Below the pieces are notes generated by a model. That model was not told the origin of the DNA and made no database searches. It saw nothing but the letters and a program-made list of their open reading frames with translations. A stretch of 16,707 bases of DNA from the IMG/VR virus record IMGVR_UViG_2547132418_000023; one strand, given 5' to 3'. This stretch comes from a virus. Lineage: Duplodnaviria > Heunggongvirae > Uroviricota > Caudoviricetes. Each line of letters begins with the position of its first letter. The first letter of the stretch is position 1. Shown in pieces: positions 1 to 16,166 of the stretch. The translations under genes and the position numbers were made by a program.

Positions 1-765
1 ATGCGCGAAAGGGTATCGCAGCAGTTAAAAGAAATTGAACGGCGGTATGATGTGAAAGTATTGTACGCCTGTGAATCAGGGAGTCGCGGTTGGGGATTTG
101 CCTCGCCCGACAGCGACTACGATGTACGGTTTTTGTATGTTCACCCGCTGGAATGGTATCTGCGAGTAGAGTCACCGCGCGATGTTATCGAGCTGCCCAT
201 CGATGACGAGTTAGATGTTTCCGGTTGGGAGTGGCGTAAGGCGCTGGGATTATTGAAAGGCGCGAACCCGACGCTGATAGAATGGCTGGATTCTCCGGTG
301 GTCTATCAACAAGATGAAGAAACGATAACGGCGCTTAAGGCAATGGTCCCAACGTGGTTTTCTCCGCTGCGTGCGCGCTGGCATTACTATTCGATGGCGC
401 AGAAAAACTTCCGCGGATATTTGCAGGGCGATGAAGTTCGACTGAAAAAATACTTTTACGTGCTGCGCCCGCTGCTGGCCGTTCGTTGGGTTGAAGCGGG
501 AAAAGGTGTACCGCCAATGCGTTTTTCCGAATTGCTGGCGGGAAGTGAGTTGGATGCGGCATTACGCGCAGAAATAGATGAATTGCTGGAGCGTAAACAG
601 CGTGCGGGTGAAGCGGAATATGGACTGCGCCGTCCTTTGTTACATGCGTTTATTCGTGCGGAACTGGCGCGCGGGGAAATTCCTCCGCTGTTACCAGACA
701 GCCGGGAAGGGGACGTTAAAGAACTGGATAGTTTACTGTACCAGACGGTAATGCGCCGGGCGTGA
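1..765 (+). CDS. Nucleotidyltransferase-fold protein (Pol-beta superfamily), 254 aa; 5' end coincides with the window edge so the true start may lie upstream
   Basis: ATG at position 1, TGA at 763-765. N-terminal motif GSRGWGFASPDSDYDV fits the nucleotidyltransferase signature hG[GS]-x(9-13)-DhD. Convergent to the tail operon. Confidence 0.6.
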   Translation: MRERVSQQLKEIERRYDVKVLYACESGSRGWGFASPDSDYDVRFLYVHPLEWYLRVESPRDVIELPIDDELDVSGWEWRKALGLLKGANPTLIEWLDSPVVYQQDEETITALKAMVPTWFSPLRARWHYYSMAQKNFRGYLQGDEVRLKKYFYVLRPLLAVRWVEAGKGVPPMRFSELLAGSELDAALRAEIDELLERKQRAGEAEYGLRRPLLHAFIRAELARGEIPPLLPDSREGDVKELDSLLYQTVMRRA

Positions 766-781
766 AGCCCGGCGTTATTTT
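754..781 (+). terminator. Rho-independent terminator for the nucleotidyltransferase gene, sitting between convergent genes
   Basis: Perfect 8-bp stem CGCCGGGC (754-761) / GCCCGGCG (767-774), 5-nt loop GTGAA, followed by TTATTTT. The stop codon lies in the loop. No U-tract in the minus orientation. Confidence 0.55.
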
Positions 782-1235
782 ACGGCTGATATTGCCAGCT
801 ACTGACTAAAGCGTACAAGTGGTTTGGGGAATAGCGCCAACTCTCCTTTAATTGCAGAAATTCGGCACAAAATTCGCTGCAAAACAGGCGTTCACGCTGT
901 TCTTTATTACCGGTAATAATTCCAAGCGCGCCGCGCCAATCATATTTTTTGCCATCATGTTTATGGAAAAACGCTTCCACGTCCTGAAGGCTGGCCTGGA
1001 GCGGCAGCATATCCCACTTATCCGCTGGCAATGGCATTATCTTTCCGCGTACACCGCGATCGCGCAGTGATGCAGAGTAACAAAGGTAACTCTTTTCACC
1101 ATGCTTAACGGCTAATTCACAGTGGGAATAACTACCGCGCGTGATTTTACGGGTAAGCCAGTCAGCCAGTCGGGCAATACCACGGTGCTCTGTTCGGCCC
1201 TTATAACAAGCGAGCCAGACAGTGGTTTTACTCAT
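780..1235 (-). CDS. Putative permuted papain-like amidase (YiiX/YaeF-like, NlpC/P60 superfamily), 151 aa, translationally coupled to the upstream fibre chaperone gene
   Basis: ATG at 1233-1235 overlaps the upstream stop (ATGA). Motifs YSHCE, GKKYDW and FCSEFC resemble the His-before-Cys arrangement I recall for YiiX-family proteins. Recalled from memory, not searched. Confidence 0.4.
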   Translation of the reverse strand: MSKTTVWLACYKGRTEHRGIARLADWLTRKITRGSYSHCELAVKHGEKSYLCYSASLRDRGVRGKIMPLPADKWDMLPLQASLQDVEAFFHKHDGKKYDWRGALGIITGNKEQRERLFCSEFCAEFLQLKESWRYSPNHLYALVSSWQYQP

Positions 1236-1846
1236 GCTTGCCAGCCTGTTGAATAATCGTAGTCGAGCACCGCCTGAATATCGTCCAGAGCTTCCACCGC
1301 CGCGATATGGTGCTGGGCATTGGCGAACAGGCGCATATCGTGATCCATTGTTACCGATTCAAACTGGGCGGCGATCTCGTTGGTTAACTCGATCAGACCG
1401 TTATTTTTAGTTTTCCACATTAACCCTGGAGGGATTTTTTTCTCCGCTCCCATTTTTGTGAGTGAGAGCTGTTGGATACGGCTGTTTGTATCACTGTGGA
1501 AGTGATGGTTGTTGATGATGATGTAATCGGTTGTGACGTAATCCCGTTTGGATTTTATTCTTCTTATTATATCCGCTTTTATTTCTGAAATAAATTTAAG
1601 CATTGAATCTGTATCAACTATCCATTCTCCTTTTTTTAGTTTGTGAAATCTATCTGGTGGTGGCGTAGAGATAAAGGATAAATCTTCACAGTTAATCCAA
1701 ATTGGGATATTAGCTTTCGCATATGTCTGCCATTGCTGATCAGTTATTTCAACTAAATGTTCTACTTTAGGATAGTTGTAGTGTTCTGTATCGATCCAGT
1801 CCAGAACGATAAATGTTTCAGGATCAAAACAAGCATATTTTGTCAT
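1232..1846 (-). CDS. Putative tail fibre assembly/chaperone protein, 204 aa
   Basis: ATG at 1844-1846, immediately downstream of the fibre gene. Its 5' half shares the low GC (about 25-40%) of the fibre tip. It lacks the C-terminal EWP motif I recall for lambda/P2 Tfa, so the call is mainly positional. Confidence 0.5.
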   Translation of the reverse strand: MTKYACFDPETFIVLDWIDTEHYNYPKVEHLVEITDQQWQTYAKANIPIWINCEDLSFISTPPPDRFHKLKKGEWIVDTDSMLKFISEIKADIIRRIKSKRDYVTTDYIIINNHHFHSDTNSRIQQLSLTKMGAEKKIPPGLMWKTKNNGLIELTNEIAAQFESVTMDHDMRLFANAQHHIAAVEALDDIQAVLDYDYSTGWQA

Positions 1847-1852
1847 TTTTAA

Positions 1853-3847
1853 TTACCATGATATTTTTACGAAGCCAGAGGCACCTTTTGTTCCGCTAGT
1901 ATTGCCTAAATTTGTTAACTCATTATTTTTATATTGAAAAGGAGGTAAATAAGATCCCCCAGCTCCTCCAGAACCATAACCTGTTGCTGCTGTTGGCTTT
2001 GCCATTACTGCTTTTTTTCCACCATTACTTAGGTTTTCTGTAATAACAGTACCTGAAGCCCCTCCCTTTCCATATATAGAATTTTCACCATTCTTTCCAG
2101 GATAAAATTCTGCAGATGACGGTATTGCATTTGGTGGAGTACCTTTAGGATCGTCACTGAATTTTATATAAGGCTGCGTAGTGTTAGAGTGATAAATGTT
2201 ATATCCTCCATGGCCACCTTTTGCAGTTAGATTAGAAAACGAAGAGTCTCCACCATCAAAGCTTTTTTGTGTTGTCTCTGTTTTATCATACGAATACTTT
2301 ATTTGTGAAACAGGTGGATTGTTCCAAAAAGGACCTCCATTACCTCCAGCTCCGATCTTTACTGAAAAATGCTGGCCTGGTGCCACGTTTAAGTAATCAA
2401 CAATCAATTCTCCTGCATTACCTCCGCAGGCTTCATAATGTGATGATTGTGCTCCTCCGGCCCCCCCACCTCCGCCGCCCATAATTTCCACAAATAATAT
2501 TGTTACGCCCTCAGGAACTATAAATGTTCCATTTGTAGTATAAAAACTAGTGTGGGTATGATTAGCTGGAGCTGCAGTTTTTGCCTTATCCATTGCCGCC
2601 TTCACCGCGCTCGGTGTCGCCGCCTCCGTCGTACTGTTGCTATCCGTCGCGTTATTAAGCTTCACAATCCCTTTTTGCGACAGGGTGCCGTCTGGAACAC
2701 CCGTAATCTGTCCCCATGGGTGAGTATGGTTTCCCGCAGCCTTACTATTCGCCAGGTCATATGCCGCCTTCACCGCGCTCGGTGTCGCCGCCTCCGTCGT
2801 ACTGTTGCTATCCGTCGCGTTATTAAGCTTCACAATCCCTTTTTGCGACAGGGTGCCGTCTGGAACACCCGTAATCTGTCCCCATGGGTGAGTATGGTTT
2901 CCCGCAGCCTTACTATTCGCCAGGTCATATGCCGCCTTCACCGCGCTCGGTGTCGCCGCCTCCGTCGTACTGTTGCTATTGGTCGCGTTATTAAGTTTCA
3001 CAATCCCTTTTTGTGTCAGGGTACCGTCAGGAATACTCGTAATCTGCCCCCAGGGGTGCGTATGACTACCCGCAGCCTTACTATTCGCCAGGTCATACGC
3101 CGCCTTCACTGCGCTCGGTGTCGCCGCCTCCGTCGTACTGTTGCTGTCTGTCGCGTTATTAAGCTTCACAATCCCTTTTTGTGTCAGCGTACCATCTGGT
3201 ATATCAGTAATCTGACTCCAGGTATGACGATGATTTCGAGCCTCAATCATTGCCGCTTTCACCGCTTTTGGCGTAGCCGCTTTGGTTTCGTCATCACTGT
3301 CAGTGGCGTTACTCAACTGTGTAAAGCCTTTTTGCGTTAACGTAGCATCAGGATGATTAGTCGAACGCTCATGTTCATCCAGTTGTGAATCAACATAATC
3401 CCGTGTTGCCAGTACAATACTGGGGTCAACGGTGAGTGTTACCGCAGTCGTGTTGGAAACTTCCATAATCAGGCGAATGCAAACTTGCTTACCGCTGCCG
3501 CCGGGTAATAGTGGTTTATACGACTCCGGGAATTTACCGATAGCAATGAGTTCACCATCGGTATCAAAAACGCCGACTTCACGTACATACCAGCCGCCGA
3601 TATTTTCGGGCAGCACGAGTTCCGCAATTAACCAGTTAGGGTTATTGGGTGCAACTGTTAATGTATTTAAATCACCGCGCCATACTTCATGGCGTAATTT
3701 AGTTTGGCTGACGGTGGGTTCATAATATTGTCCTCCGCTGTCACCAACAGCCATTTTTTGTAGATGAAGCTGTTTTTTATCCGCCAGAGCATTGGCAATT
3801 TTTGCCATTCCCCTGTCGGTGAGTAGAGTATAAAACTCATTGTCCAT
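1853..3847 (-). CDS. Tail fibre protein, 664 aa: P2 gpH-like N-terminal domain, 56-aa repeat shaft, glycine-rich C-terminal tip
   Basis: ATG at 3845-3847 with GGAG 6 nt upstream. The N-terminus (EVWRGDLN, IAELVLPENIGGW, ESYKPLLPGGSG, ATRDYVDSQLDEHE, HPDATLTQKGFTQLSNATDS, ATPKAVKAA) matches my recollection of P2 gpH. Repeats of HTHPWGQIT..PDGTL.QKGIVKLNNATDSNSTTEAATPSAVKAAYDLANSKAAG follow. C-terminus carries GGGGGGAGG, GAGGNGG, GGHGG, GSGGAGGS motifs. Confidence 0.9.
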   Translation of the reverse strand: MDNEFYTLLTDRGMAKIANALADKKQLHLQKMAVGDSGGQYYEPTVSQTKLRHEVWRGDLNTLTVAPNNPNWLIAELVLPENIGGWYVREVGVFDTDGELIAIGKFPESYKPLLPGGSGKQVCIRLIMEVSNTTAVTLTVDPSIVLATRDYVDSQLDEHERSTNHPDATLTQKGFTQLSNATDSDDETKAATPKAVKAAMIEARNHRHTWSQITDIPDGTLTQKGIVKLNNATDSNSTTEAATPSAVKAAYDLANSKAAGSHTHPWGQITSIPDGTLTQKGIVKLNNATNSNSTTEAATPSAVKAAYDLANSKAAGNHTHPWGQITGVPDGTLSQKGIVKLNNATDSNSTTEAATPSAVKAAYDLANSKAAGNHTHPWGQITGVPDGTLSQKGIVKLNNATDSNSTTEAATPSAVKAAMDKAKTAAPANHTHTSFYTTNGTFIVPEGVTILFVEIMGGGGGGAGGAQSSHYEACGGNAGELIVDYLNVAPGQHFSVKIGAGGNGGPFWNNPPVSQIKYSYDKTETTQKSFDGGDSSFSNLTAKGGHGGYNIYHSNTTQPYIKFSDDPKGTPPNAIPSSAEFYPGKNGENSIYGKGGASGTVITENLSNGGKKAVMAKPTAATGYGSGGAGGSYLPPFQYKNNELTNLGNTSGTKGASGFVKISW
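2594..3265. repeat. Tandem 168-bp direct repeats (4 copies, units starting 2594, 2762, 2930, 3098; degenerate 5th about 3251-3340) inside the fibre gene
   Basis: TGCCGCCTTCACCGCGCTCGGTGTCGCCGCCTCCGTCGTACTGTTGC recurs at an exact 168-bp period. Copies 1 and 2 are nearly identical, later copies progressively diverged. In-frame, encoding 56-aa repeats. Confidence 0.85.
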
Positions 3848-3849
3848 AA

Positions 3850-4482
3850 TTACTCCGGGTAAATAGATGTAATTTCAAGGCTCCATTGCCCTGTTCCGTA
3901 ATAAATCGATGTGTTGTGCTGTACTTCCCGTATCTGGAAAGGTAAAACCGTCGTCAGTTCACCACCATAAAGTGCACAGCCAATAACAGGAATAGCACTT
4001 TGGTTAATGATCCAGACGATTAATGCTTCCAGTTTTGAACGTGTGTTTTTATATTCATGAATGAGTTCTACCAAATCATTGAAAAGGTTTTCATCCAGGC
4101 CTTTATCCACCAGCGCTATATCCACCTTAAAAAAATAAGCCCTTCCCCCATATTCAAACCATTCTGAAATAGTTCCTGGTAATGAGAGTATTTCCAGCAC
4201 CCGCCGCACCGCCCAAATTGTTCCTTTATATTTATGCAGTTCAATGGCTTGTTTAATTAACTCGCGTTTCTCCCGCTCATCGGTGGTAAATAACCAACCT
4301 TCCAGCCCCTGAACGTGAAATTGTTCTGCAAGGGCTGGTAATGCCGAAGCATCAACCTGGTCGATCAGATAAACCATCAACGCCGTCAGATCGAGTTGGG
4401 CAAAACGCTCGGCGGCGATATTTGCCAGAATCGAAAAACGCTCATCGCTGGCAAGCGGCGGCGGTGGCAGCAATTTATCCAT
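3850..4482 (-). CDS. Baseplate/tail protein, P2 gpI-like, about 210 aa
   Basis: The ORF-track start at 4497 is TTG; in-frame ATG at 4480-4482 (MDKLLPPPP...) overlaps the gpJ stop by 8 nt. Positioned between gpJ and the fibre as in P2 J-I-H. Confidence 0.7.
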   Translation of the reverse strand: MDKLLPPPPLASDERFSILANIAAERFAQLDLTALMVYLIDQVDASALPALAEQFHVQGLEGWLFTTDEREKRELIKQAIELHKYKGTIWAVRRVLEILSLPGTISEWFEYGGRAYFFKVDIALVDKGLDENLFNDLVELIHEYKNTRSKLEALIVWIINQSAIPVIGCALYGGELTTVLPFQIREVQHNTSIYYGTGQWSLEITSIYPE

Positions 4483-5590
4483 CGCTGACTCCGGCAATCG
4501 TGACGTCTATTGCGGTGCATTCCGCCCACTCATGCGCCTGCAAAATACGTTTTGTAGGCATATTCAGCGCAACGTCATAGACGCCATCGACCTGTAACAC
4601 TTTGATTATCTGGTTTGGCACAATGTCCTGCCCCAGATGTTTCTGCCGCTGTTGCGTCCAGAGGCTAATCGCTTTACGCGCTGCAGCCAGCGTTGTCTCC
4701 TGATCGGCGGTGGTAAACAGCGTTAGCTGCGCACGGATCTCATATGGCACTCGAAGAGCGCATTTCGCACTCACTTTGTCGGTCAGCGGACGTTTTTTCT
4801 CCTTGCTAACCTCCTGTTCAATTTGCGCGAGCAGTTCTATTCCCGGCAGTCCGTTCAGAGTTAGCGGGTAGATCTCCACGCAGCCTTCTGGCAATCCCTC
4901 GTCCGGCCCCAGTACTGCAACGTCAATAATCGACTGGCTAACAGAAAGCGTATGAAAGCGGTAGGCACCATAGCTGCCCGCATTACTAAAGCTTTCTGGT
5001 GCCAGTTGGATACGCTGGCGCAATGCGTCATCGCTCTCTTCACCGCAGCCGCCCGTTGACGCAGTCAGGTTGGTTACGTTGATGTCATAATGACCAATCC
5101 TGTCGACCAGTGCGCTAATTTGTGCAGGCTGCCAGCCGTTACCCTGTTCACCTGCTGCGAGGCTGGTGGCAGGAACGGCGATATGCAAACTCCTGGCCGG
5201 AAGCAGAACATCTTCATCGGTGGCGAACATCACGCTATCAGAGGCACTGGCCCGCGTTCCCTGGGGAATCAGGATATTGCTGGTATACGCGCTGACGACC
5301 GAAAACTGCAACGTCGTTTTTGCCGGCTGCGCAGGCAAACGGTGAACGCCCACCAACTCCCCTAAATAATCCAGCATTGGCGCGCGGGAATACGCGACCA
5401 GGTTCTGTTTCGCCGCTTCCTGAATGGCGATGCGTACAAGGTTTTCACGATAGGCAAACAGGTCGATGAGCAACCGCTCAGCCTGTGCCGGATAGAGTTT
5501 TTTACCGCTGGCATCTTCGTATTGCGCAATCATCTCACTGGTAATTTGCGCAGGATCGCGGTCAATAAAATTGGGTTCGGCTATCGCCAT
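4475..5590 (-). CDS. Baseplate J-like protein (P2 gpJ / T4 gp6 family), 371 aa
   Basis: ATG at 5588-5590 with GGAGGGG Shine-Dalgarno. Size and position after the gpW-like gene; start overlaps the gpW stop by 10 nt. Confidence 0.8.
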   Translation of the reverse strand: MAIAEPNFIDRDPAQITSEMIAQYEDASGKKLYPAQAERLLIDLFAYRENLVRIAIQEAAKQNLVAYSRAPMLDYLGELVGVHRLPAQPAKTTLQFSVVSAYTSNILIPQGTRASASDSVMFATDEDVLLPARSLHIAVPATSLAAGEQGNGWQPAQISALVDRIGHYDINVTNLTASTGGCGEESDDALRQRIQLAPESFSNAGSYGAYRFHTLSVSQSIIDVAVLGPDEGLPEGCVEIYPLTLNGLPGIELLAQIEQEVSKEKKRPLTDKVSAKCALRVPYEIRAQLTLFTTADQETTLAAARKAISLWTQQRQKHLGQDIVPNQIIKVLQVDGVYDVALNMPTKRILQAHEWAECTAIDVTIAGVSDG

Positions 5591-5940
5591 AACCCCTCCG
5601 TTGAGTTGATAACGCCGTCAGCGGCGCGCCATTGCACACGTAACGTCAGATGTTCGCCGTCGATTACTGGTGTCACCTTCAGCAACCGACAGCGCGGCTC
5701 CCACTGGCGGATGGCTTCCACCGACTCCCGTACCACATGCGGAATTGCCCGCTCGATGGGGTAATCGATGTAGTGCCACAAGTTGCTGCCAAACAGCGGT
5801 CTGTGGGGATCACTGCCGCGCGGTGTGCGCAGAATGATGTGTATTGCCTGGTGAATATCATCCAGTCCGCAGACGTATTCTTCAGGCCGCTGCAAGGCCG
5901 GTTGCCAGTGCAGCGTTGAGGGTCGTGTTTTTGTGTTCAT
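5581..5940 (-). CDS. Baseplate wedge protein, gpW / T4 gp25 family, 119 aa
   Basis: ATG at 5938-5940. Motifs DDIHQAIHIILRTPRGS and IRQWEPRCRLLKVT align with P2 gpW (ILRTPVGS, LKWEPRV) as I recall it. Confidence 0.85.
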   Translation of the reverse strand: MNTKTRPSTLHWQPALQRPEEYVCGLDDIHQAIHIILRTPRGSDPHRPLFGSNLWHYIDYPIERAIPHVVRESVEAIRQWEPRCRLLKVTPVIDGEHLTLRVQWRAADGVINSTEGLWR

Positions 5941-5999
5941 GAGGGTATTTTCGCCCTGAACGGGCTGTGGCGATATTAAAGCGATTTAGAAAACTGATT

Positions 6000-6033
6000 G
6001 ATTAAAAAGAGAAAACCCGCCATCAGGCGGGTT
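6000..6033 (-). terminator. Intrinsic terminator inside the tail operon, between the spike and gpW genes
   Basis: Perfect 8-bp stem AACCCGCC (6014-6021) / GGCGGGTT (6026-6033), loop ATCA. In mRNA sense it is followed by UUUUCUCUUUUUAAU, just downstream of the spike stop. Confidence 0.55.
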
Positions 6034-6038
6034 AAACG

Positions 6039-6740
6039 TCAGTGTGTATGGTGGTTGGAGTTGCCACCGCTGTCCTGCAATGCGCCGCTGGCCTGAACGT
6101 TGCCGATCACGTTGACATTGCCAGTTATCGTGGCGGCGTTACCGATGCCTCCACTTCCTGCCATCCCGCCAAGCCAGGTGAGTTTTTTCATTACCGTGAC
6201 ATTGCCAGTAAAGGTGCTCATGGGCGCATCTACCGTCACTGCTGCCGCTTTAACATCGACCTTAGTGGCGTCGATGCTGACATCGGTCGCTTTAATATCG
6301 ACGGTATCGGAAGTCACGGTGACCTGTTGGGCTTTAATCTCAACGTTGGGTGATGTCAGGCGGGTACTGTCGATAACCTCAATCACGATTTTCTCGATAC
6401 CGCCGTTAATCGTCAGCTGGTGGGTGCTGCGGTCATATTCAAACGCTGCGCCATCAGAAAACTGGACGTAACGTTTATCGCGCGAGGCCACAGGCGCGGT
6501 GTCAACCGTAGAATAAACTGCGCCCAGCACCACGCCATCTTCACCGTTATTGTCCAGCAGAACTTCCACTTGCTCGCCCATATCCGGTAGCCAGTAGTCT
6601 TTATTGTCCTGGGAATTGCGTTGAAGTACCGCAAGCCAGTTGCTCTTCAGATTGTCACACTCCGGAAGCGTGACTCGCACCCGAACGCTGGTTTCGTCAA
6701 TATCGCTGATAATCCCCGTTTGACGGGTTACTCCTTTCAT
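6039..6740 (-). CDS. Baseplate central spike, P2 gpV-like, 233 aa
   Basis: ATG at 6738-6740 with AAGGAGG Shine-Dalgarno. N-terminal OB-like region, then beta-helix-like repeats (VTVTSDTVDIKATDVSIDATKVDVKAAAVTVDA). C-terminus ends NSNHHTH, an HxH apex motif of the kind that binds metal in P2-type spikes. Confidence 0.8.
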   Translation of the reverse strand: MKGVTRQTGIISDIDETSVRVRVTLPECDNLKSNWLAVLQRNSQDNKDYWLPDMGEQVEVLLDNNGEDGVVLGAVYSTVDTAPVASRDKRYVQFSDGAAFEYDRSTHQLTINGGIEKIVIEVIDSTRLTSPNVEIKAQQVTVTSDTVDIKATDVSIDATKVDVKAAAVTVDAPMSTFTGNVTVMKKLTWLGGMAGSGGIGNAATITGNVNVIGNVQASGALQDSGGNSNHHTH

Positions 6741-6749
6741 ATTTCCTCC

Positions 6750-7790
6750 TTACTGGCTGGTCGCTGGCCCGCGTGACACGTCGATTTCAGTGGTATAGCC
6801 GCTGCGCACAAAACTGTGAGTCGATTTATCAATCAGCCACTGACCGGAAAGCACGCCAAAATCGGTCAGTTCAATTTTATTGCCCGCCGTCAGTTCCGGG
6901 CAGCCCATCATCCTGAGCGTTCCGGTTTGTTGATATTCGTTGTGGCTGTCGAGCGCGGCGTTGGCCTTTGCCTGTGCCGCGCCAACGTCCGGCGCCCGAC
7001 TGTTCAGTTTTAGCGTGTCGGCACTGGTGCCGACTCCACGGGCAGACGGTTTTTGCTGGCTGTCGTGGGTGTAGATAACCAGTTCTTTTTTCTTACTATT
7101 TTGATGCTGTACGGTGGCATTTTTGTAGATACGGTTAATGGTATCTTTGAAGGTGAAATGCGAAACGTCTTTGCGGTCGATCGTTTTTACCGGCGCCAGG
7201 CAGCGCAGCGTGGGTAAATGCGAAAAAATCAGTTCTTTGGTGGTCACCTTTACCGCATAGCCATATTCGCTGGCCAGGCGCTTGAGAAATCCGACATCGG
7301 TTTCACCATACTGCGTTACCCGGTCGATGGTGAGCGGCTCGATTTTGCCCACCAGTTTCAGACCGTGCGTTTGGGCGATACGGCTGGCGATAGCCGAAAG
7401 CGTCGTTTCTTCAAAGCCCTGGCTGTTACGGGTACGCAGCGCCTGATTGACGGAAGTGGCGATGCCATCAATATTTACCGTAGAAGGTGGCGCTGAAATA
7501 TCAATTTTATCAATAATATACTGACCACAATCGAGCAGCTTTTCCCCCTGATAACCCATATGCAGCGCCAGCGTATCGCCTTTGCCGGGATACCACTCTT
7601 TTATCCAGCGTCCATCGGTGTCATCCAGTGTAATCGCGATGGTATCTGACTCGTTTTTGATGCTGTCGTGGTAACTGATGCTGGTGACATAGGGTGTGAT
7701 GTCATAAGTGATATCTTTATGCCCATACCAGAGGGTAAAAATGGGCGTGAGTGTGGCAAAGACGCCACCAGTTACGCTTATCTCAGCCAT
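6750..7790 (-). CDS. Baseplate hub, P2 gpD-like (late control gene D family), 346 aa
   Basis: ATG at 7788-7790. Sits upstream of the spike and after gpX as in the T-U-X-D block. The C-terminal region (TGTLRMMGCPELTAGNKIELTDFGVLSGQWLIDKSTHSF) resembles gpD. Confidence 0.8.
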   Translation of the reverse strand: MAEISVTGGVFATLTPIFTLWYGHKDITYDITPYVTSISYHDSIKNESDTIAITLDDTDGRWIKEWYPGKGDTLALHMGYQGEKLLDCGQYIIDKIDISAPPSTVNIDGIATSVNQALRTRNSQGFEETTLSAIASRIAQTHGLKLVGKIEPLTIDRVTQYGETDVGFLKRLASEYGYAVKVTTKELIFSHLPTLRCLAPVKTIDRKDVSHFTFKDTINRIYKNATVQHQNSKKKELVIYTHDSQQKPSARGVGTSADTLKLNSRAPDVGAAQAKANAALDSHNEYQQTGTLRMMGCPELTAGNKIELTDFGVLSGQWLIDKSTHSFVRSGYTTEIDVSRGPATSQ

Positions 7791-7987
7791 GGTGGGATCT
7801 CCGATAAGGTTTTATTGACGGAAATGACCGGAATAATGAGCTGAATACCGGAAGGCAGTACCGGGTAAATGGCGACATGTGGATTGGCGACGATTATGCG
7901 TTCATAAGCCAGCGCATCACCGTAGTAATGCCATGCCAGATTATCCCAGCGTTCGCCGTCGGTGGTGATATGTTCAAGGTATCGCAT
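7778..7987 (-). CDS. Tail protein X (P2 gpX-like, LysM-like), about 69 aa
   Basis: The ORF-track start at 7990 is GTG; ATG at 7985-7987 overlaps the upstream stop (TGATG). Motif WDNLAWHYYGD...ANPHV...LPSGIQLIIP resembles P2 gpX. Confidence 0.75.
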   Translation of the reverse strand: MRYLEHITTDGERWDNLAWHYYGDALAYERIIVANPHVAIYPVLPSGIQLIIPVISVNKTLSEIPPWLR

Positions 7988-8940
7988 CACCAGATCCTCG
8001 TAATGGTCGCGGCAGCAAGCTGGCTCACTGTGGGAGTGGTTTGTTGTACCGTTGTTCGTGCCTGATCAACCAACGTTGCGGCTTTATCAAACGTCGCTTC
8101 GGCGATGTCGCTGGTAATGTCGTCGAAAAGCGCCTGAGCATGGTCAACCAGTGTACTGGCGTCATTGGCGCAGTCCCGGATACCTGGCATGTTACCCAGT
8201 AAAGTTTTAATCTGCGCCGACAACGCTTTTGGGAGTCCTGCCAGCGTTTGCAGATCCATTGGCTGTTTAAACAGGGTTTCGATGGCGTCGATTGTCTTTT
8301 TCAATGACGTAATTATCTTTTCACACTTTTCTTTTAACACTTTGGCCTCTTTAATCATTGCTTTCACTTTTGCCACCGTTTTTTTAATATCTTCAATGGC
8401 TTGTGTCAGTTCATCCAGCATCTCTTTGGCCTTACGCATACCTTCTTCGATGGCGTTTAATATCTGATCAAACCAGGACTCCACCATGTCGGGAAAATCG
8501 CTCGCCTTTTCCTCAATGTTAGGCTCCTGGGTGGTAATCGCCGGAGGTAAAAGTGGATTTTTAGGATCGCCGGTGTACTCCTGGAGCGACATCGTTCCGT
8601 TTTGGGCAATCACATTGCCCCAGGGATCGGTGTGCTGGTGGGTGGCGGTTAGCTCCGTAATTACAAACCAGCCGCGATAATCGCCATTGCCAAATACCAG
8701 TGCCATCGCCTTGTGAGCAAGCATGGCTTCACGCAGTCGATTAAGCTCTGTTGTGGGCTGGCAAAACTGGCTGTGCAGGGAAAATTCCAGCGCCAGCATA
8801 TCCAGCTTATCGCCAATAAACTGCACACCGGGTTTGCCTTCTATACGGGCATGTGTGGCGTAATCCACGCCCATTGTGCTTTTAAAGCCGTCCCAGAATG
8901 CGACAACCTTAAATTCAATCTCTCCTAAAACGGCATACAT
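7987..8940 (-). CDS. gpU-like tail protein with a roughly 165-aa helical C-terminal extension, 317 aa
   Basis: ATG at 8938-8940 overlaps the tape-measure stop (TGATG). N-terminal GDYRGWFVITELTATHQHTDPWGNV resembles P2 gpU (GWFVITSISRQH). The C-terminal half is K/E/A-rich and heptad-like (EEGMRKAKEMLDELTQAIEDIKKTVAKVKAMIKEAKVLKEK). Confidence 0.7.
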   Translation of the reverse strand: MYAVLGEIEFKVVAFWDGFKSTMGVDYATHARIEGKPGVQFIGDKLDMLALEFSLHSQFCQPTTELNRLREAMLAHKAMALVFGNGDYRGWFVITELTATHQHTDPWGNVIAQNGTMSLQEYTGDPKNPLLPPAITTQEPNIEEKASDFPDMVESWFDQILNAIEEGMRKAKEMLDELTQAIEDIKKTVAKVKAMIKEAKVLKEKCEKIITSLKKTIDAIETLFKQPMDLQTLAGLPKALSAQIKTLLGNMPGIRDCANDASTLVDHAQALFDDITSDIAEATFDKAATLVDQARTTVQQTTPTVSQLAAATITRIW

Positions 8941-11315
8941 CAGGCATACCCCCGGCGCTGTTGTTGCGCCATTACGTCGTTAATCATTCTTTCAAGTTCG
9001 CGTTTACTCATCGTCAACACGTTCTGAATCTCTTTAGTGGTGTTTTGTCCGTTACCCTGCACGGTAATCTGTGGCGAAAAATTCACCTGAACTTTTCCAG
9101 AGGAACGGGAAGGTAGCGTCGCCGGTTTGGTTACGGATTTACCAGGTAAAGAGGCCAATGCGGGTTTGGCGGCTGTATTTTTTGCCGCAGGTGCCGATGG
9201 CGGCGTTGTCGTTTTACTGGATGGCGCGAGTTGTTTCCCCACCGGAGGCGTTAAAATCGCACCGGCAACGCCTGGAACAACGCTCGCGGGGGAGACGGAT
9301 GCGGTATTAGTCGTGCTTGTAATAGCTGTAGCCGATCCTTCTGTACTAATACCCATCGTGGTTTTTAGCCAGTCTGGGATGACGTTTTTGACCTGATCAA
9401 TAATGCCTTTCAGAGCGGGGAAGGCATTCATTATGCCGTCGGCCAGGCTAGCCAGAAGATTGCTGCCGAACTCGCTAAAACTCGCAGGCATTTCAACACC
9501 AAACCAATTCATCACACTGGAAAAGGCGCTATAGAACAACTCCAGCGGCGACCAGTCGAGAATTAACCGACAAATTTCTGCAATGCCGCCGTCAAAGGCC
9601 GTGGTGATACGTTGCCAGATGGTAGAAAAGAACCTGGAGATAGGCTCCCAGTTGCGATAAATCAGATAAGCAGCGCCCGCAATCGCAGTGATGACCAGAC
9701 CAATGGGATTCATCAATAAAACCCTACCCAACCAGAAGACGGTCTGACCTGCCTGTTTCAGTGCGCCAATCAGGCCACGACCAAGCAGTTGCGTTAGCCA
9801 TTTTGCACCGCCACCCAATGACTTAACCGCTGATAGCATCTTACTTGCCCCGCCTGTGAGTGCCAGACTTGCCCTGACTTTCAGGAAGATATCGACCAGA
9901 CGAATAAACGGCGAGGCGATGAAGTTCGCGCCCAGTTTTAAAACATTCAGCGCGCCGTTAAACAGCCAAATCGCCCCGACGATTTTCGCAATGTTTTGCA
10001 CCAGTGCCGGGTGCTCACGTAGCCAGGCGCTGAACTGGCGAACAACCGGCGTAAGGCTTTGTGCCAGCTCGCCAATCAGCGGCATTAATTGCAAGCCAAT
10101 GCTGAGCCATAAATCATTTAACGCCAGCTGTAACGCTTTAGTCTGTTCAATGGGCGAGGCCATTTGCGCAGAAAAGTCGGCATCAATCAGATTCTTGCTG
10201 CTGGCTTGCATGGCAGAGGCTTTTAACTGGCGATATTCCTCCATATTCGCCAGCATAGGTGCCAGGAATTCCACAGTTTGCGCATCGCCGAACATTTCGC
10301 CCAGATTAAATTGCGTCACCATCGATTGCAGCGCATTGCTGCGAGCAGATAAATCTTCAATCTGCATAGTGCGTTTGAAGGTGCCGAGGATCGCCGGATT
10401 CATCTTCTCAAGCTGCATTTGCACGATATGAGTCATGGCTTCGCTAACACCCATACCGTTTTGCTGATGCTCAAGCAGAGAGCCTTGCAGATCAACGCCC
10501 TGGCTGGCGAACCAGTTATCGGTTTTTTTCGAAAAGGTGGTTTGCAGAAAGTGGTCGAAATTCTCCGCCGCCGCACTGGCGCTGGCCCCGTTTTTCATGG
10601 CGATCTGCATGATGGCGGTCAGTTCAGCCATACCTTCCAGACCCTGAGCGCCGGTTTTACCTGCAAATTTCTCTATCCACTGCGTTTGTTCGGCAACGGC
10701 AGGCCCACCGCTTTTGCTAATGCCATACATCATGTTTTGCGTGGCGTGGAAATTTTCCGGGGCAATATTCAATCGATCATGAGTCGCGAGCGCGGCATTC
10801 GCCCACGTTTCAGCACTTTCGCGCGTGGCGGTGGCAGCTTTGGCGATCTCCGGCATATAACGGTTGAGATCCTGCATCGACGACAAATTGCCTTCGATCA
10901 GCGTTTGGGCTGCGTTCTGTAAGGTGGTCTGCTGCTGGTTAAAATCCATGCTCCAGTCGCGCAGATTAAGGCTGAGCGTCTCGCGGGTTGTAGCATTCAT
11001 CCCACCTTTGGTCGCCATATTGACCATGTTGTCCTGGAACTCATATGGCAACTTCCAGTCGGGGGCTTCAACATTGAATACCTTGCTAAATTGCCCGGCA
11101 AATGTTTGGGTTTTCTCCATTAGATCAGCGCGGTTCCGGCTATTTTCCTCCAGGCGGAGAGCAGAATCGGCAAGTTGCTGCGTTAGTTTGATTACTGTCG
11201 CTTGCTGAGAAGAGAGAGCTAACAAAGTTCTGGCGTTGAGTGAGCCGTAACGGGCTATTGCCTGCGTCAACGTCTCATTACGCGCCTGAAGCTGGGTAAT
11301 AATATCGTTGGCCAA
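8940..11315 (-). CDS. Tail tape measure protein, 791 aa
   Basis: Long, mostly alpha-helical, hydrophobic central segments, Pro/Ala/Ser/Thr-rich stretch near the C-terminus, located after the chaperone gene. Start is TTG at 11313-11315 (in-frame stop at 11328-11330, no nearby ATG), preceded by AAAGAGAAA. Confidence 0.8.
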   Translation of the reverse strand: MANDIITQLQARNETLTQAIARYGSLNARTLLALSSQQATVIKLTQQLADSALRLEENSRNRADLMEKTQTFAGQFSKVFNVEAPDWKLPYEFQDNMVNMATKGGMNATTRETLSLNLRDWSMDFNQQQTTLQNAAQTLIEGNLSSMQDLNRYMPEIAKAATATRESAETWANAALATHDRLNIAPENFHATQNMMYGISKSGGPAVAEQTQWIEKFAGKTGAQGLEGMAELTAIMQIAMKNGASASAAAENFDHFLQTTFSKKTDNWFASQGVDLQGSLLEHQQNGMGVSEAMTHIVQMQLEKMNPAILGTFKRTMQIEDLSARSNALQSMVTQFNLGEMFGDAQTVEFLAPMLANMEEYRQLKASAMQASSKNLIDADFSAQMASPIEQTKALQLALNDLWLSIGLQLMPLIGELAQSLTPVVRQFSAWLREHPALVQNIAKIVGAIWLFNGALNVLKLGANFIASPFIRLVDIFLKVRASLALTGGASKMLSAVKSLGGGAKWLTQLLGRGLIGALKQAGQTVFWLGRVLLMNPIGLVITAIAGAAYLIYRNWEPISRFFSTIWQRITTAFDGGIAEICRLILDWSPLELFYSAFSSVMNWFGVEMPASFSEFGSNLLASLADGIMNAFPALKGIIDQVKNVIPDWLKTTMGISTEGSATAITSTTNTASVSPASVVPGVAGAILTPPVGKQLAPSSKTTTPPSAPAAKNTAAKPALASLPGKSVTKPATLPSRSSGKVQVNFSPQITVQGNGQNTTKEIQNVLTMSKRELERMINDVMAQQQRRGYA

Positions 11316-11416
11316 AATTGTTTCTCTTTAATTATTGATAATGGCCCACTGGTTATTTTTCTAAAAAAGGGGCTGGGAAGAAATAAACCTGGCGGGCTTT
11401 GAAGAACTCGCAGACA

Positions 11417-11822
11417 TCAGGTCTGGGAGCCATATTCGATCTTTATTTGGTCGCTGGCTTCATCCAGCCAGTTGCTAAAGTCATCTATGGTGAGCGCGTC
11501 TATCTCACTGGGTGGAAAGCGAAACCATCTCGCCAGTAGCGCCATTGCCTGCCATAGCTGGGGAGGATTCTGTAACCACGGTAAGCATGGATTGAAATCG
11601 TTTCTGCAATGCCTGGTAATCCAGCAAATCCATTTCAGCTAAATCTTCTGGCACCAGTCCGGTCATCGCCGCCATTAGCGGTTCATCCCACTCTTCGGGT
11701 TTTTCGCTGATCCGGCGCGCGTTGCGCATATCTTTTACTTTCAGGCGACGTAATTGCAGCGAGTCGATAGTATTTCCTGCTGCCGACGTAAATGGGAACT
11801 GTAAGATATAATGCTCTTTCAT
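11417..11822 (-). CDS. Putative frameshift-extended chaperone (E+E'-like) produced by a +1/-2 shift near the 3' end of the chaperone gene
   Basis: The +1 frame is open from 11638 to a TGA at 11417-11419 and encodes protein-like sequence past the chaperone stop (...WFRFPPSEIDALTIDDFSNWLDEASDQIKIEYGSQT). The -1 frame stops after 8 codons. Slip site not identified. Confidence 0.4.
11505..11822 (-). CDS. Tail assembly chaperone (P2 gpE-like), 105 aa
   Basis: ATG at 11820-11822 with AAGGA Shine-Dalgarno. Position between tube and tape measure. DLAEMDLLDYQALQKRF resembles the gpE family. Confidence 0.75.
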   Translation of the reverse strand: MKEHYILQFPFTSAAGNTIDSLQLRRLKVKDMRNARRISEKPEEWDEPLMAAMTGLVPEDLAEMDLLDYQALQKRFQSMLTVVTESSPAMAGNGATGEMVSLSTQ

Positions 11823-11848
11823 TTTGTATCCTTATTTATGTTGCGAAG

Positions 11849-11868
11849 TTCGGGGCCGTAGCCCCGAA
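11849..11868 (-). other. Intergenic RNA stem-loop between tube and chaperone genes, no U-tract
   Basis: Perfect 8-bp inverted repeat TTCGGGGC (11849-11856) / GCCCCGAA (11861-11868), loop CGTA, in the 47-nt tube-chaperone gap. Confidence 0.5.
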
Positions 11869-11872
11869 TAAT

Positions 11873-12397
11873 TTAGCCACCGATGTTATTGCGATAGGTA
11901 CTTAATTGATCCACGCCGTTAACCCGAAAAATATTCGCCATATAATCAAGTTCAAGCAGCGTTTCACCATCGACCACTTGTTTAATATAAGTACAACCAA
12001 AGGCGCTGCTGAATTCCGGGTTTTCATTCTGTTTAAATGTGCCCAAGGGATTCTTTTTAAACATCACGGTTAAATGTGTCACTAACGCTAATTGATTCGC
12101 TTTCCCCTGGGAGTTATAGCAATCAATACTGGAGCGGCACTGTAATGCTACTGCCTGCCACGGGTTTGCCGTTTTACGCATTACGTCCTGATAAAAGGAG
12201 TTCCATTTAATTTCCCCCTCCAGTTTATCGAAACCAGCCGGGAGTTCGATTTTACCGACCATACCCAGTGCTTTATGCTCTTGCATAATTAAACTGACAT
12301 CCGGCAATTTAATTTCGGTTGCACGACCTAAAAGATTATTACCATCGAGATAAATATTGGCGTTGGTAATACGGTTAATTTGAATTTTTCCAGCCAT
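11873..12397 (-). CDS. Tail tube protein (P2 FII-like), 174 aa
   Basis: ATG at 12395-12397 overlaps the sheath stop (TAATG). C-terminus CTYIKQVVDGETLLELDYMANIFRVNGVDQLSTYRNNIGG closely matches P2 FII as I recall it. Confidence 0.85.
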   Translation of the reverse strand: MAGKIQINRITNANIYLDGNNLLGRATEIKLPDVSLIMQEHKALGMVGKIELPAGFDKLEGEIKWNSFYQDVMRKTANPWQAVALQCRSSIDCYNSQGKANQLALVTHLTVMFKKNPLGTFKQNENPEFSSAFGCTYIKQVVDGETLLELDYMANIFRVNGVDQLSTYRNNIGG

Positions 12398-13821
12398 TAG
12401 CTATTGCTCTCCAGAGAGACTAAATATTCAGAAGTAATTTCAGTTTCAAACGTCAGACGTTCCAGCGGCGGCGGCGGGGTGAATTTATAGCTAAGCAATA
12501 AATGCCCGGCGCTGAGTTCAGCCGGTGAATTTCGCGCCGGATCGTACCAGCACTCAAAGCCAAGCAGTGCGCCGTCGGCAATCAGTTTTCGGCCCCAGGT
12601 ATTTACCGATTCGGTCAGCGCGTCAATAAGAGCCTGATTAATCGGCATATCAATATACTGCTGACTGAAATAACGGATTGACTCATTAATTACATCGCCT
12701 GTCCGGCGAACGTTTTCAAAGTTACGCATATGGGTCACGGTAGGCCATGCCGCTGTGCGGTTGCCCCACAAGCGCAGACCAGAACCGTAACTATTGAAAA
12801 TAGTGGTAATGCCGTTTTCGTTGAGCTGATTCACTTCGCTTTGTGGATCATCAATCATTGCAGAAAGCGAACGTTCAATACCGGTAATACCCTGAATTTC
12901 CTGGTTTGAGTTGCTCCACCAGAAACCTTTTTCGAGGTCTACTTTGGCACGTAGCCCGGCAGCGCGCGAAGAGAGTGGTTCGAGAACTTCCTGGTTAGTG
13001 ATGCCATCGTAAACTTTGACGTGTGGGTAACATAAACGCACACGATCAGAGCTGGTATTGAAGTTGATAGCCCCTTGCGAACCGCGTCCAGCCAATACCT
13101 GCTGGAATGTCGTCCCAATCGGAGCATCAATGTAGGTAAGCGCACCGAGTTTTTCCGCTTGTGCAATCAGCTCAGTAGTTACTGATTTTTGCGTACAAAA
13201 CACGGGAGCAAGCAGGATTTTGGCGTAGAAACCGTACAGGTTATAGGTGTCCTGAAGGAGTTTCATCCCCGTGCGGTCGCCTGCGGTATTTACGGCACCG
13301 ATAATATCGGCTGCGGTGACCTTTGTAGGGTCGCACCAGGAATAATAGGCGCAAACTTTCGCACCAGGAGGAATGTCGGCTCCTTTACGGGTAATTATGC
13401 CTGTTTGTTCATCTACGCTAAATGCTGCGGTGTTAAAGGTTGATGAATTTGATGAAGAGGGCTTTAGTACCACGTTACGCACATTGCGGTGAGCGAGCTT
13501 CGCCTGGTTGTTAGCGTCAAAAGTGATACTCTCATTGCTGATGTTGGAGCCATGTTTTGCCGGATCCAGCACGTTAATCACCACCACCGTACCGGCACCG
13601 TGGTCATAAATCGCCTTCAGTGCCTGTGGGATCGTAAAGTTAGCCTGAGTCGAGCCAAACTGCGCAGCATCGCTTTCAGAAAGGCATAATGTTGGTTTAT
13701 TTACCGGACCGCAGGGGGCCGTACCGATTAAAGCGATGACGGCGGATTTTACCGCTTTAACCGGACGCGGGCCGGTTTCAATTTCAATGGTTTCTACACC
13801 GTGCAGGTAATTAGCTGCCAT
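12397..13821 (-). CDS. Tail sheath protein (P2 FI-like), about 474 aa
   Basis: The ORF-track start at 13827 is TTG; ATG at 13819-13821 is preceded by GAGGA. C-terminal region (LRLWGNRTAAWP..., ECWYDP..., LSYKFTPPPPLERLTFE) matches sheath proteins. Confidence 0.9.
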   Translation of the reverse strand: MAANYLHGVETIEIETGPRPVKAVKSAVIALIGTAPCGPVNKPTLCLSESDAAQFGSTQANFTIPQALKAIYDHGAGTVVVINVLDPAKHGSNISNESITFDANNQAKLAHRNVRNVVLKPSSSNSSTFNTAAFSVDEQTGIITRKGADIPPGAKVCAYYSWCDPTKVTAADIIGAVNTAGDRTGMKLLQDTYNLYGFYAKILLAPVFCTQKSVTTELIAQAEKLGALTYIDAPIGTTFQQVLAGRGSQGAINFNTSSDRVRLCYPHVKVYDGITNQEVLEPLSSRAAGLRAKVDLEKGFWWSNSNQEIQGITGIERSLSAMIDDPQSEVNQLNENGITTIFNSYGSGLRLWGNRTAAWPTVTHMRNFENVRRTGDVINESIRYFSQQYIDMPINQALIDALTESVNTWGRKLIADGALLGFECWYDPARNSPAELSAGHLLLSYKFTPPPPLERLTFETEITSEYLVSLESNS

Positions 13822-14008
13822 GTACAATTTCCTCTACGTTATTTTGTTCTTCCTGAGTGATGACAGGAGTCAGATGATTGCGGGCAATCATGGTCATGAC
13901 CCACTCGTTGTCTTCTGGCAGATCAATTTCACTGTTCGGCCACAATAAGATTTCTTGTCCATCGGCAAGGGTGACGCCGCTTGCCGGGCCGTTGTAGATG
14001 TATTTCAT
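13811..14008 (-). CDS. Small conserved tail-module protein (Mu gp38-like), 65 aa
   Basis: ATG at 14006-14008 overlaps the upstream stop (ATGA). Position directly before the sheath, as in Mu-like phages. Family assignment from memory. Confidence 0.4.
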   Translation of the reverse strand: MKYIYNGPASGVTLADGQEILLWPNSEIDLPEDNEWVMTMIARNHLTPVITQEEQNNVEEIVHGS

Positions 14009-14460
14009 TCAGTTTCCTCGTAGTTAACTTCCGTAAGCAGGGGAAGATCCGTGCTTTCCTGTTCAGCGATAAACAGCGAGCTGGTCGCCATTTCCAGGAT
14101 GTAGCGGCAGAAACCGCCGCTCTCACCCGTATTAATTTCTTTTTCAAGCCAAAGCAGACGATCGCAATCAGGAAGCTGAAGGCCGCCCAATGCGCTGCGT
14201 ATGCAATCAAGTGCGTTTAACGCGTCACAATTTTTGTCAACAATAACGGTGGCGGTTAAGCGGAGTATTTGCTGTTGCACGATGGCATCACTGCTTTCGG
14301 GTGTGGTAAAGACAGAACCGCTATAATTAATAATCACTGCAACTTGTTGTGTCTGTGGAATATATTTCTGGGCATCCGTAGATGAAATAAATATATCCAT
14401 TTCAGGATGCCGATCACGTAATTTGACCATGACATAATTCATTGCAGATAAAATTTTCAT
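14005..14460 (-). CDS. Putative tail completion/terminator protein (Mu gp37-like), 151 aa
   Basis: ATG at 14458-14460. First gene of the tail operon after the terminator. VAVIINYSGSVF-type motif. Family assignment from memory. Confidence 0.45.
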   Translation of the reverse strand: MKILSAMNYVMVKLRDRHPEMDIFISSTDAQKYIPQTQQVAVIINYSGSVFTTPESSDAIVQQQILRLTATVIVDKNCDALNALDCIRSALGGLQLPDCDRLLWLEKEINTGESGGFCRYILEMATSSLFIAEQESTDLPLLTEVNYEETE

Positions 14461-14564
14461 ATGAGGTGTACCTTAATTACCGCTCACTTCGTTATCGTTG
14501 AGATGTATTATGAAGCAGTGAAGGTGAAGAATCTTTTAATGTGATTTAGAGAAAAAATTGAATG

Positions 14565-14601
14565 GCTATAAAAAATCCCCACACTTACGTAAAGGTGGGG
14601 A
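14565..14601 (-). terminator. Intrinsic terminator separating the lysis cassette from the tail operon
   Basis: 7-bp stem TCCCCAC (14576-14582) / GTGGGGA (14595-14601) with a partly self-complementary loop. In mRNA sense followed by UUUUUUAUAGCC, just after the 14607 stop. Confidence 0.5.
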
Positions 14602-14606
14602 TGTAT

Positions 14607-14921
14607 TTAATAACTGCCACGTTGTAACAGCTCGATTTTGCTATATAAGGCATCCAGCTTTGCTTCTAATACTGCTTGCCCACGAAGATAATCTTCTCTG
14701 CGGACATAATGCAGCGGAAGCTCGGCACGAAATTCAAGAAACTCTCTTTCCAGTTTCGACCAACTTGTTTCTGATTCCCTGCGGGCATTTTCCAGAGACT
14801 CAAAACGCTCATTAAGTCGTTTTTCAATTTGCGCTAACAGCAGTTTTCCGGCAGCAAACATTAATCCAACGAAGGAAAGCATAAGGGAGATCACTTCCCA
14901 AAAATCGATACTGAGTTTCAT
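14607..14921 (-). CDS. Membrane-anchored coiled-coil protein, possible lysis accessory (i-spanin-like), 104 aa
   Basis: ATG at 14919-14921 with GAGGGG Shine-Dalgarno. N-terminal hydrophobic helix (VISLMLSFVGLMFAAGKLLLA) then charged heptad-like sequence. Last gene of the lysis cassette. Confidence 0.5.
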   Translation of the reverse strand: MKLSIDFWEVISLMLSFVGLMFAAGKLLLAQIEKRLNERFESLENARRESETSWSKLEREFLEFRAELPLHYVRREDYLRGQAVLEAKLDALYSKIELLQRGSY

Positions 14922-14933
14922 CGGCCCCTCTGA

Positions 14934-15539: not shown

Positions 15540-15541
15540 CA

Positions 15542-15829: not shown

Positions 15830-16125
15830 ACGATATCTCCTGATAAGTGAGCGTTTAGTGTCGTCAGAACCCGCCAGTGAAGAATGAAAAAAGCTTTAAT
15901 AAATAAGTTTAAAAAATAGATTCTCTATAAATGAACATGCCCGCTAATAAATCGACTCAGCAATTAAAGAGCAAACGGTGACCTGGCGAATAAGCGCGTC
16001 ATTATGCAGGGAAAAGATGATGGTGGATCGTAGGAATAGTCGATAGTTATTTGATTTTTAAAGTTTGTTTAAGAAAGTCAGCGACTGTGAGGGAAACGAT
16101 CTTTTTACACTACAGGTAAAAATAA

Positions 16126-16145
16126 TACTGTATGTGCATACAGTA
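16126..16145. promoter_or_regulatory. LexA (SOS) box
   Basis: TACTGTATGTGCATACAGTA is a 20-bp palindrome with CTGT-N8-ACAG, one mismatch from the E. coli recA operator as I recall it (TACTGTATGAGCATACAGTA). It lies in the divergent control region. Confidence 0.7.
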
Positions 16146-16166
16146 TCGTGTAAAATGATACTCCTG

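Follow-up and report, generated by a model that had tools for sequence, protein, structure and literature searches.

The viral record IMGVR_UViG_2547132418_000023, a stretch of 16,707 nucleotides (nt) here called 'the window', opens with a gene for a Pol-beta-type nucleotidyltransferase and continues with a cluster of phage tail genes. This report concerns the nucleotidyltransferase gene, a member of the RlaP family (hereafter RlaP), and its relation to the genes on both sides. Between yjbD and lysC, the chromosome of Escherichia coli D7 matches the window at 100% identity, as do the chromosomes of many further strains. In D7 this interval contains, in order, a Band_7/SPFH 'slipin' gene (hereafter Band7), RlaP, the tail cluster on the other strand, and lysC. 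Band7 encodes 375 amino acids (aa), shows only sub-threshold similarity to HflK/HflC in an NCBIfam scan, and ends 5 nt upstream of RlaP. It thus lies just outside the window, where the preliminary description of this DNA, made from the letters alone, had placed a partner gene if one existed.

The open reading frame (ORF) of 254 codons plus stop matches the Pfam family PF10127 (RlaP, 'RNA repair pathway DNA polymerase beta family') end to end. The score is 322.1 bits (E = 3.5e-96) with a cut-off of 23 bits, residues 1-247 being aligned with profile positions 1-248 of 249, and RlaP is the sole Pfam family matched. When 13 RlaPs (36-83% identity) from Enterobacterales, Burkholderiales, Desulfovibrio, Bacillaceae and Prevotellaceae are aligned, no variation is seen at G27-S28, D39-Y-D41 and D72. 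The assignment to Pol-beta-type nucleotidyltransferases with a GS...DxD motif, made in the preliminary description, is thus confirmed and refined to a family. By its sequence, the E. coli protein bears every hallmark of RlaP, and the catalytic residues are intact. NCBIfam and PADLOC scans of the nucleotidyltransferase gave no match. The first codon of the window is an internal Met; the annotated start, conserved across genera, lies 27 nt upstream, and the window clips nine codons. The complete gene in RefSeq is 792 nt (263 aa), with the N-terminus MPLNGVSAAMRERV; D39 and D41, as counted from the window start, are D48 and D50 of the complete protein.

The gene is under purifying selection. Among E. 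coli alleles, the ratio of nonsynonymous to synonymous divergence (dN/dS) of RlaP is 0.04-0.09 where D7 or IAI39 is one of the two compared, despite dS values reaching 0.45, and that of Band7 is 0.03-0.06 in comparisons of the same kind. The close 2015C/FDA1059 pair has a dN/dS of 0.235 at a dS of 0.035. Every E. coli allele examined has an intact RlaP ORF. Because dN/dS stays so low at such dS, and Band7 behaves alike, RlaP is a maintained gene rather than a relic.

RlaP orthologues (77-88% identical) occupy the same yjbD-lysC position in many enterobacterial species, mostly inside an operon controlled by RtcR. We classified 73 species-level loci by tblastn. In Klebsiella aerogenes and Franconibacter, a divergent RtcR gene on the minus strand is followed by Band_7-RtcB-RlaP on the plus strand and lysC on the minus strand, and the full operon is likewise present in Citrobacter amalonaticus, Phytobacter, Enterobacter, Kosakonia, Yokenella, Erwinia and Enterobacillus. 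Thus the RNA ligase is found within the operon of syntenic orthologues 78-87% identical, in Klebsiella, Franconibacter, Enterobacter, Phytobacter, Kosakonia, Yokenella and C. amalonaticus. RtcR-Band7-RlaP without RtcB was found in several Citrobacter, Kluyvera, Klebsiella michiganensis/grimontii, Superficieibacter and Hafnia, and RtcR with RtcB-RlaP, without Band7, in Leclercia, Serratia, some Erwinia and Pantoea. Photorhabdus has RtcB-RlaP only, RtcR and Band7 not being found in the 7-kb flanks. Escherichia has Band7-RlaP only, with no rtcR found between yjbD and Band7 at any Escherichia locus surveyed. By these comparisons, Band7-RlaP of Escherichia appears to be a reduced version of the enterobacterial RtcR/sigma54 RNA-repair operon, from which the local rtcR and rtcB have been lost.

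The same 9 nt, AAAGGATAA (codons K-G-stop), stands at the end of Band7 and at the end of rtcB itself, as seen in locus L006 (at about 5755-5770 and 6985-7000) and at the same positions in L016, L018, L029 and L037. This microhomology would explain the precise excision of rtcB in the loci that lack it. The yjbD-lysC interval of Escherichia ruysiae contains RlaP only (L011 6697-7001). Because Band7, a match to the sigma54 promoter and the T-arm motif (both described below) are all absent there, this locus represents a further stage of reduction.

Outside the order, the arrangement described for Pseudomonas, RtcR with RtcB-RlaP-RtcA, was found in L064 and L065, and Burkholderiales RlaP homologues in the rtcB-rlaP-rtcA order are 55-56% identical. 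Both loci, on metagenome-assembled Burkholderiales-like contigs, also have arrays of six tRNA genes inside or beside the operon (L064 9813-11333, L065 83-899), the array of L064 lying between rtcA and a Band7 gene.

In E. coli, Band7 is preceded at a distance of 315 nt by a putative sigma54 promoter of the -24/-12 type, TGGCAC-N5-TCGCA. The genera retaining RtcR have TGGCAC-N5-TGGCA at the corresponding position, and the E. coli sequence TGGCACGCTTCTCGCA takes the place of the TGGCACGCTTCTGGCA of these 20 loci. Upstream of the promoter, Escherichia has in common with the RtcR-bearing genera an inverted repeat, TTATC-N6-GATAA, and an A/T-rich block, both recognized by eye. E. coli has rtcR and rtcBA at another locus, malT-glpR. 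Among the 5426 complete E. coli genomes searched for all our genome counts, 5425 contain rtcR, and with this count our assessment of the rival explanations takes every E. coli genome as retaining rtcB and rtcR elsewhere than yjbD-lysC. The yjbD-lysC RtcR of Klebsiella is 62% identical to K-12 RtcR, and the yjbD-lysC RtcB is 72% identical to K-12 RtcB. RtcR is activated by 5′ tRNA halves ending in 2′,3′-cyclic phosphate (PMC7790460). From the sequences we infer that the Band7-RlaP promoter may respond to E. coli RtcR in trans.

Between promoter and Band7 lies a transcribed leader of about 300-390 nt. In D7, the promoter and a leader of ~300 nt occupy L001 18525-18843, which is 1.2-1.5 kb upstream of window position 1. 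When 23 sequences from about 15 genera are aligned, 29 of the 46 proposed base pairs show compensatory changes, and 95.8% of cells are paired, compared with 39-50% when the partners are slid; none of 500 shuffles reaches the observed values. Long-range RNAalifold pairs touching alignment columns 1-15 were discarded, because these columns are untranscribed promoter. By this covariation, the leader is a structured RNA. It contains an invariant GGGUUCGAUUCCC hairpin that resembles a tRNA T-arm (GGGTTCGATTCCC in D7), followed by a covarying closed hairpin and then a conserved ACUGGUUGU with a D-loop-like GG motif, the last two being identified by eye. The tRNA-like module of the Y-RNA YrlA has its motifs in the same order (PMC4201824). 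Every locus with Band7 has the T-arm motif, and the rtcB-rlaP loci without Band7 lack it. Rfam 15 scans of the leader from E. coli and four other genera returned no family, and ARAGORN calls no tRNA in the leader.

At the other end, the operon is closed by an intrinsic terminator, which a terminator scan detects as GCGCCGGGC-GUGAA-GCCCGGCG, nine pairs of which eight are G-C, followed by UAUUUUA (Table 1). The 56-nt terminator stretch folds at -26.5 kcal/mol (z = -3.5 versus shuffles), and compensatory changes preserve the hairpin in one Escherichia lineage (GCACCGGGUG...UGCCCGGUG). Rfam gives here only a chance hairpin match to SorX (E = 0.8). Since the hairpin straddles the stop codon of RlaP and the U-tract exists on the plus strand only, this is RlaP's own terminator rather than a symmetrical, two-way one. 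The tail operon does end facing RlaP across a real hairpin, as the preliminary description had it, and its last ORF is convergent, but the terminator belongs to RlaP and is not shared. The stop codon of that ORF, at 780-782, lies inside the U-tract. The ORF has no Pfam, PADLOC or NCBIfam match, and it occurs together with RlaP in exactly those 196 genomes that have the tail sheath gene.

Table 1 Features at the left end of the window (window coordinates)
Feature	Position	Strand	Remarks
RlaP-family (PF10127) RNA 3′-end nucleotidyltransferase coding sequence (activity predicted)	1..765	+	residues 10-263 + stop; true start 27 nt upstream of window
Pol-beta-fold catalytic core	79..216	+	G27-S28 at nt 79-84; D39-x-D41 at nt 115-123; third carboxylate D72 at nt 214-216
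Intrinsic terminator of the Band7-RlaP operon	753..782	+	stem-loop 753-775 spanning TGA stop 763-765; U-tract 776-782
Left edge of the tail-cluster insertion	781..785	.	last sequence in common with zeta-haplotype E. coli genomes
Last tail-operon ORF, 151 aa	780..1235	-	convergent on RlaP; boundary neighbor, outside the RlaP module

Two haplotypes were compared beyond the terminator. The tail haplotype (D7, IAI39) and the zeta haplotype (2015C-3108, FDAARGOS_1059), in which a zeta-toxin gene takes the place of the tail cluster, are alike to ...GCCCGGCGTTATTT(T/C)ACG and unrelated beyond. They part within about 5 nt 3′ of the U-tract, from about window 785 onward, and the terminator is conserved in both. 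Therefore, the tail cluster was inserted into the interval bounded by the terminator and lysC, and RlaP is its flank. The tail cluster is at the yjbD-lysC site in both genomes examined for position.

The genome counts agree with this boundary. RlaP has a match of any length in 1632 of the 5426 genomes (30%) and one covering at least 80% of it in 1628. The tail sheath gene is present in 196 genomes, the junction between RlaP and the tail genes also in 196, and the junction RlaP-zeta-toxin-lysC in 1431. The two junction counts sum to 1627 of the 1628 genomes having most of RlaP. The idea that the tail cluster brought RlaP in was rejected, with the sheath gene and the junction in 196 genomes each and RlaP in eight times as many. 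RlaP is host flank, not cargo of the tail element; the tail-less zeta haplotypes and the synteny in other genera settle the choice that the preliminary description had left between cargo and a host gene marking the left edge. As for conservation in the core genome of tail-less relatives, which it had named as refuting its idea, this is in substance what is seen: RlaP has the same position in such relatives, though it is accessory in E. coli, not core.

Where RlaP is missing, traces of the operon can remain. In K-12, yjbD and lysC are adjacent with a 252-nt spacer (L005 2633-2884). Two pieces survive in it: the initial ~130 nt of the sequence preceding the Band7 promoter, and 26 nt of the leader (CCGATAAAGACGCTGGTTAACAG...). 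Because these parts remain, the 'empty' K-12 site arose by deletion and does not show the ancestral arrangement. H45 (strain XJ6-3) retains only the last 47 nt of RlaP. The best phage homologues of RlaP, 44-45% identical, are in Pseudomonas jumbo phages, and no close homologue was found in any P2- or Mu-like phage. Among plasmids, 97%-identical E. coli matches are in records of 1.0 and 4.8 Mb, oversized for ordinary plasmids, and an 87%-identical copy is on a 425-kb Citrobacter freundii plasmid record.

Several observations concern the neighbors. The zeta-toxin family gene (307 aa; 9801-10727 in both L003 and L004) exactly replaces the tail cluster in the 1431 genomes. Its Zeta_toxin domain follows an N-terminal extension of ~100 aa, an architecture as described for the self-inhibited EzeT. 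Window 780-16707 contains a contractile-tail set of fibre, baseplate J/W/V, gpD, gpX, tape measure, tube and sheath genes, after which come those for a holin, a lytic transglycosylase and a Mor-type activator. Between RlaP and lysC there are no genes for a head, packaging, replication or an integrase, and the tail gene set resembles a tailocin or a remnant consisting of a tail only. When E. coli alleles are compared, dS is 0.1-0.6 for rluF, yjbD, Band7 and RlaP, as opposed to 0.02-0.07 for lysC and pgi, on the right of the insertion point. Because of this difference, the genes to its left form a region in which alleles either have diverged to an unusual depth or have been imported.

What RlaP does is best approached from the Pseudomonas enzymes. 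The family owes its name to an association with RNA ligases, as related in a December 2025 preprint (10.64898/2025.12.29.696909) and in PMC7824862. According to the preprint, Pseudomonas RlaPs use no acceptor other than RNA, require a 3′-OH, add one or two nucleoside monophosphates (NMPs), and favor the 5′ half of a cleaved-tRNA mimic, and PfRlaP has three strictly conserved Asp residues (10.64898/2025.12.29.696909). It is proposed there that, ahead of ligation, RlaP puts back nucleotides that ribotoxins such as RloC have removed (10.64898/2025.12.29.696909), and such a pre-ligation restoration role was likewise predicted in PMC7824862. The preprint describes the E. coli rtc operon as rtcB and rtcA only, under RtcR, and does not mention E. 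coli RlaP (10.64898/2025.12.29.696909).

By analogy, the E. coli protein probably has RNA 3′-end nucleotidyltransferase activity. By homology to the Pseudomonas enzymes, it would be a template-independent nucleotidyltransferase adding one or two NMPs to the 3′-OH of broken RNA, the favored substrate being the 5′ half of a tRNA cut in the anticodon loop. Such addition could replace nucleotides trimmed by a ribotoxin before an RNA ligase reseals the break. Band7-RlaP may cooperate with RtcB. In the most economical model, tRNA damage would lead RtcR to switch on Band7-RlaP in trans, and the pair would feed RtcB, with the canonical rtcBA/rtcR locus supplying both activator and ligase in trans. Because the sigma54 promoter and the structured leader have been kept after the loss of the local rtcR and rtcB, Band7-RlaP is most likely a satellite of rtcBA/rtcR. 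We consider it highly probable that window 1-765 forms the downstream member of a chromosomal operon of two genes, Band7/slipin-RlaP, which is a reduced RNA-repair operon and a likely satellite of rtcBA/rtcR, and that RlaP is host flank beside a separately inserted tail cluster.

Several points weigh against this interpretation. No RNA ligase was found within 20 kb of RlaP in D7 or in the 9-kb flanks of IAI39 and two zeta-haplotype strains, and no ligase, cyclase or RtcR adjoins RlaP at any Escherichia locus examined, so that the association that gave the family its name fails locally. The E. coli -12 element is one base off that of the RtcR-bearing genera. RlaP leaves a 3′-OH product and RtcB needs a 3′-phosphate, an incompatibility raised in the preprint itself (10.64898/2025.12.29.696909). 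The repeated loss of rtcB with Band7-RlaP kept suggests that the pair may have a ligase-independent job. Structure is of little help as well. The layout expected of RlaP is an N-terminal nucleotidyltransferase domain and a helical C-terminal domain whose terminal helix returns to contact the former. The AlphaFold2 model, made from a shallow alignment of 25 sequences, each at least 77% identical, has a predicted local distance difference test score of 73.7 overall and only 34-65 in the catalytic core; in this model with a weak core, strands 19-26 and 41-47 are followed by helices up to residue 251. A Foldseek search of the model against the PDB gave nothing significant (best E = 0.09), and no PDB sequence matches RlaP at E ≤ 1, no RlaP chain being among the PDB sequences searched. 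The predicted structure was not used as evidence for RlaP membership.

Of the alternatives, the one that survives best, unlikely as we judge it, takes Band7-RlaP as an autonomous stress or immunity module with no need of an RNA ligase, the SPFH scaffold holding the nucleotidyltransferase at the inner membrane. RlaP at the membrane would then tag or repair RNAs hit by imported nuclease colicins or by phage-triggered anticodon nucleases. That the pair is kept without rtcB, with or without RtcR, in Escherichia and the several other taxa listed above would fit such a module, as would the strong purifying selection on both genes in E. coli and the 5-nt gap between them, which suggests coupled expression. 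The rtc locus of Pseudomonas aeruginosa likewise contains an SPFH gene (PMC13086221); however, deletion of that gene gave no phenotype in the assays reported. Moreover, neither Band7 nor RlaP matches a PADLOC model, and rtcB and rtcR are present elsewhere in E. coli genomes, so that independence of a ligase is not demonstrated.

We think it quite improbable that RlaP is a functionless remnant of the operon, decaying and awaiting deletion. In favor of decay, no Escherichia examined has kept rtcR or rtcB at the locus, Band7-RlaP is deleted from about 70% of E. coli genomes, some genomes keep only the 47-nt 3′ fragment (H45), and Band7 is lost as well in E. ruysiae. Decay is nevertheless not what the surviving copies look like: at least 80% of the ORF length is covered in 1628 of the 1632 carriers, the dN/dS is low at considerable dS with catalytic residues intact, and the promoter, the base pairs of the leader and the terminator are all conserved.

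Least credible by far is a reading of RlaP as tail-element cargo or as the nucleotidyltransferase member of an MNT-HEPN, AbiEii or CBASS-type toxin-antitoxin or abortive-infection pair: its Pol-beta fold with GS...DxD, its place bordering a phage-derived cluster, at a hotspot of insertion where a zeta-toxin gene occurs as well, and weak structural neighbors including the Hailong defense nucleotidyltransferase HalB and MNT antitoxins (E = 0.09-0.9) are outweighed by the full-length match to RlaP as sole family, a partner that is a Band_7/SPFH membrane-scaffold protein and not HEPN or another toxin, 1431 genomes with the gene but no tail cluster, synteny in other genera mostly beside RtcR, the lack of a close homologue in P2- or Mu-like phages, and the lack of any PADLOC match for the nucleotidyltransferase, its partner or the 151-aa ORF, which also leaves little of the cargo, toxin-antitoxin or anti-phage role entertained in the preliminary description.

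Returning to the reduced RNA-repair operon, its consequences differ in reach. The left boundary of the tail cluster is fixed at about window 781-785, and the nucleotidyltransferase is removed from the gene content of the element. Many E. coli strains have retained a pair of genes from a second RNA-repair operon of the Rtc type, one that was deleted in K-12, offering a tractable E. coli setting for the in vivo role of RlaP, its companionship with SPFH proteins and RtcR control beyond rtcBA. The identity of RlaP is ordinary and the gene belongs to a known type of operon; only the leader and a possible RtcR satellite regulon could raise interest. On these we are tentative, with doubt prevailing: ~30% of E. 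coli might carry a functional 'satellite' of the Rtc regulon, an orphan sigma54-driven leader-Band7-RlaP transcript switched by RtcR in trans, with the leader representing an uncatalogued RNA family tied to Band7 and not to Ro/Rsr. If so, the leader could be, for example, a tRNA mimic serving as decoy, sensor or substrate in tRNA-damage responses, and, if new, would add an RNA player to the Rtc pathway.

Several known systems bear comparison, among them KNTase/ANT(4′), MNT and Hailong HalB. These Pol-beta nucleotidyltransferases are the top, non-significant Foldseek neighbors of the RlaP model and have, as the model predicts for RlaP, a Pol-beta core with a helical C-terminal domain, but with E ≥ 0.09, a template-modeling score of about 0.4, 10-13% identity, no family match and a different genomic context. 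Like the RlaPs of Pseudomonas (PF10127), the E. coli protein has a full-length profile match, the same GS, DxD and D set and about the same size, and it may have the predicted N-terminal nucleotidyltransferase part with a helical C-terminal part; orthologues at the same site stand directly 3′ of rtcB under RtcR, as in Pseudomonas. Unlike in Pseudomonas, the Escherichia gene has no adjacent ligase, cyclase or RtcR and has a Band_7 operon partner, and rtcA is outside the enterobacterial operon. The RtcR/sigma54 RNA-repair operon at malT-glpR resembles the yjbD-lysC operon in the -24/-12 promoter, in the divergent RtcR of the non-Escherichia versions and in an RtcB 72% identical to that of K-12, whereas yjbD-lysC is a second, separate locus in which Band7 and RlaP replace RtcA or Rsr and of which the Escherichia copy is without activator and ligase. 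Finally, the leader recalls yrlA of Salmonella, likewise an operon-encoded RNA element with a hairpin like the T-arm of tRNA.

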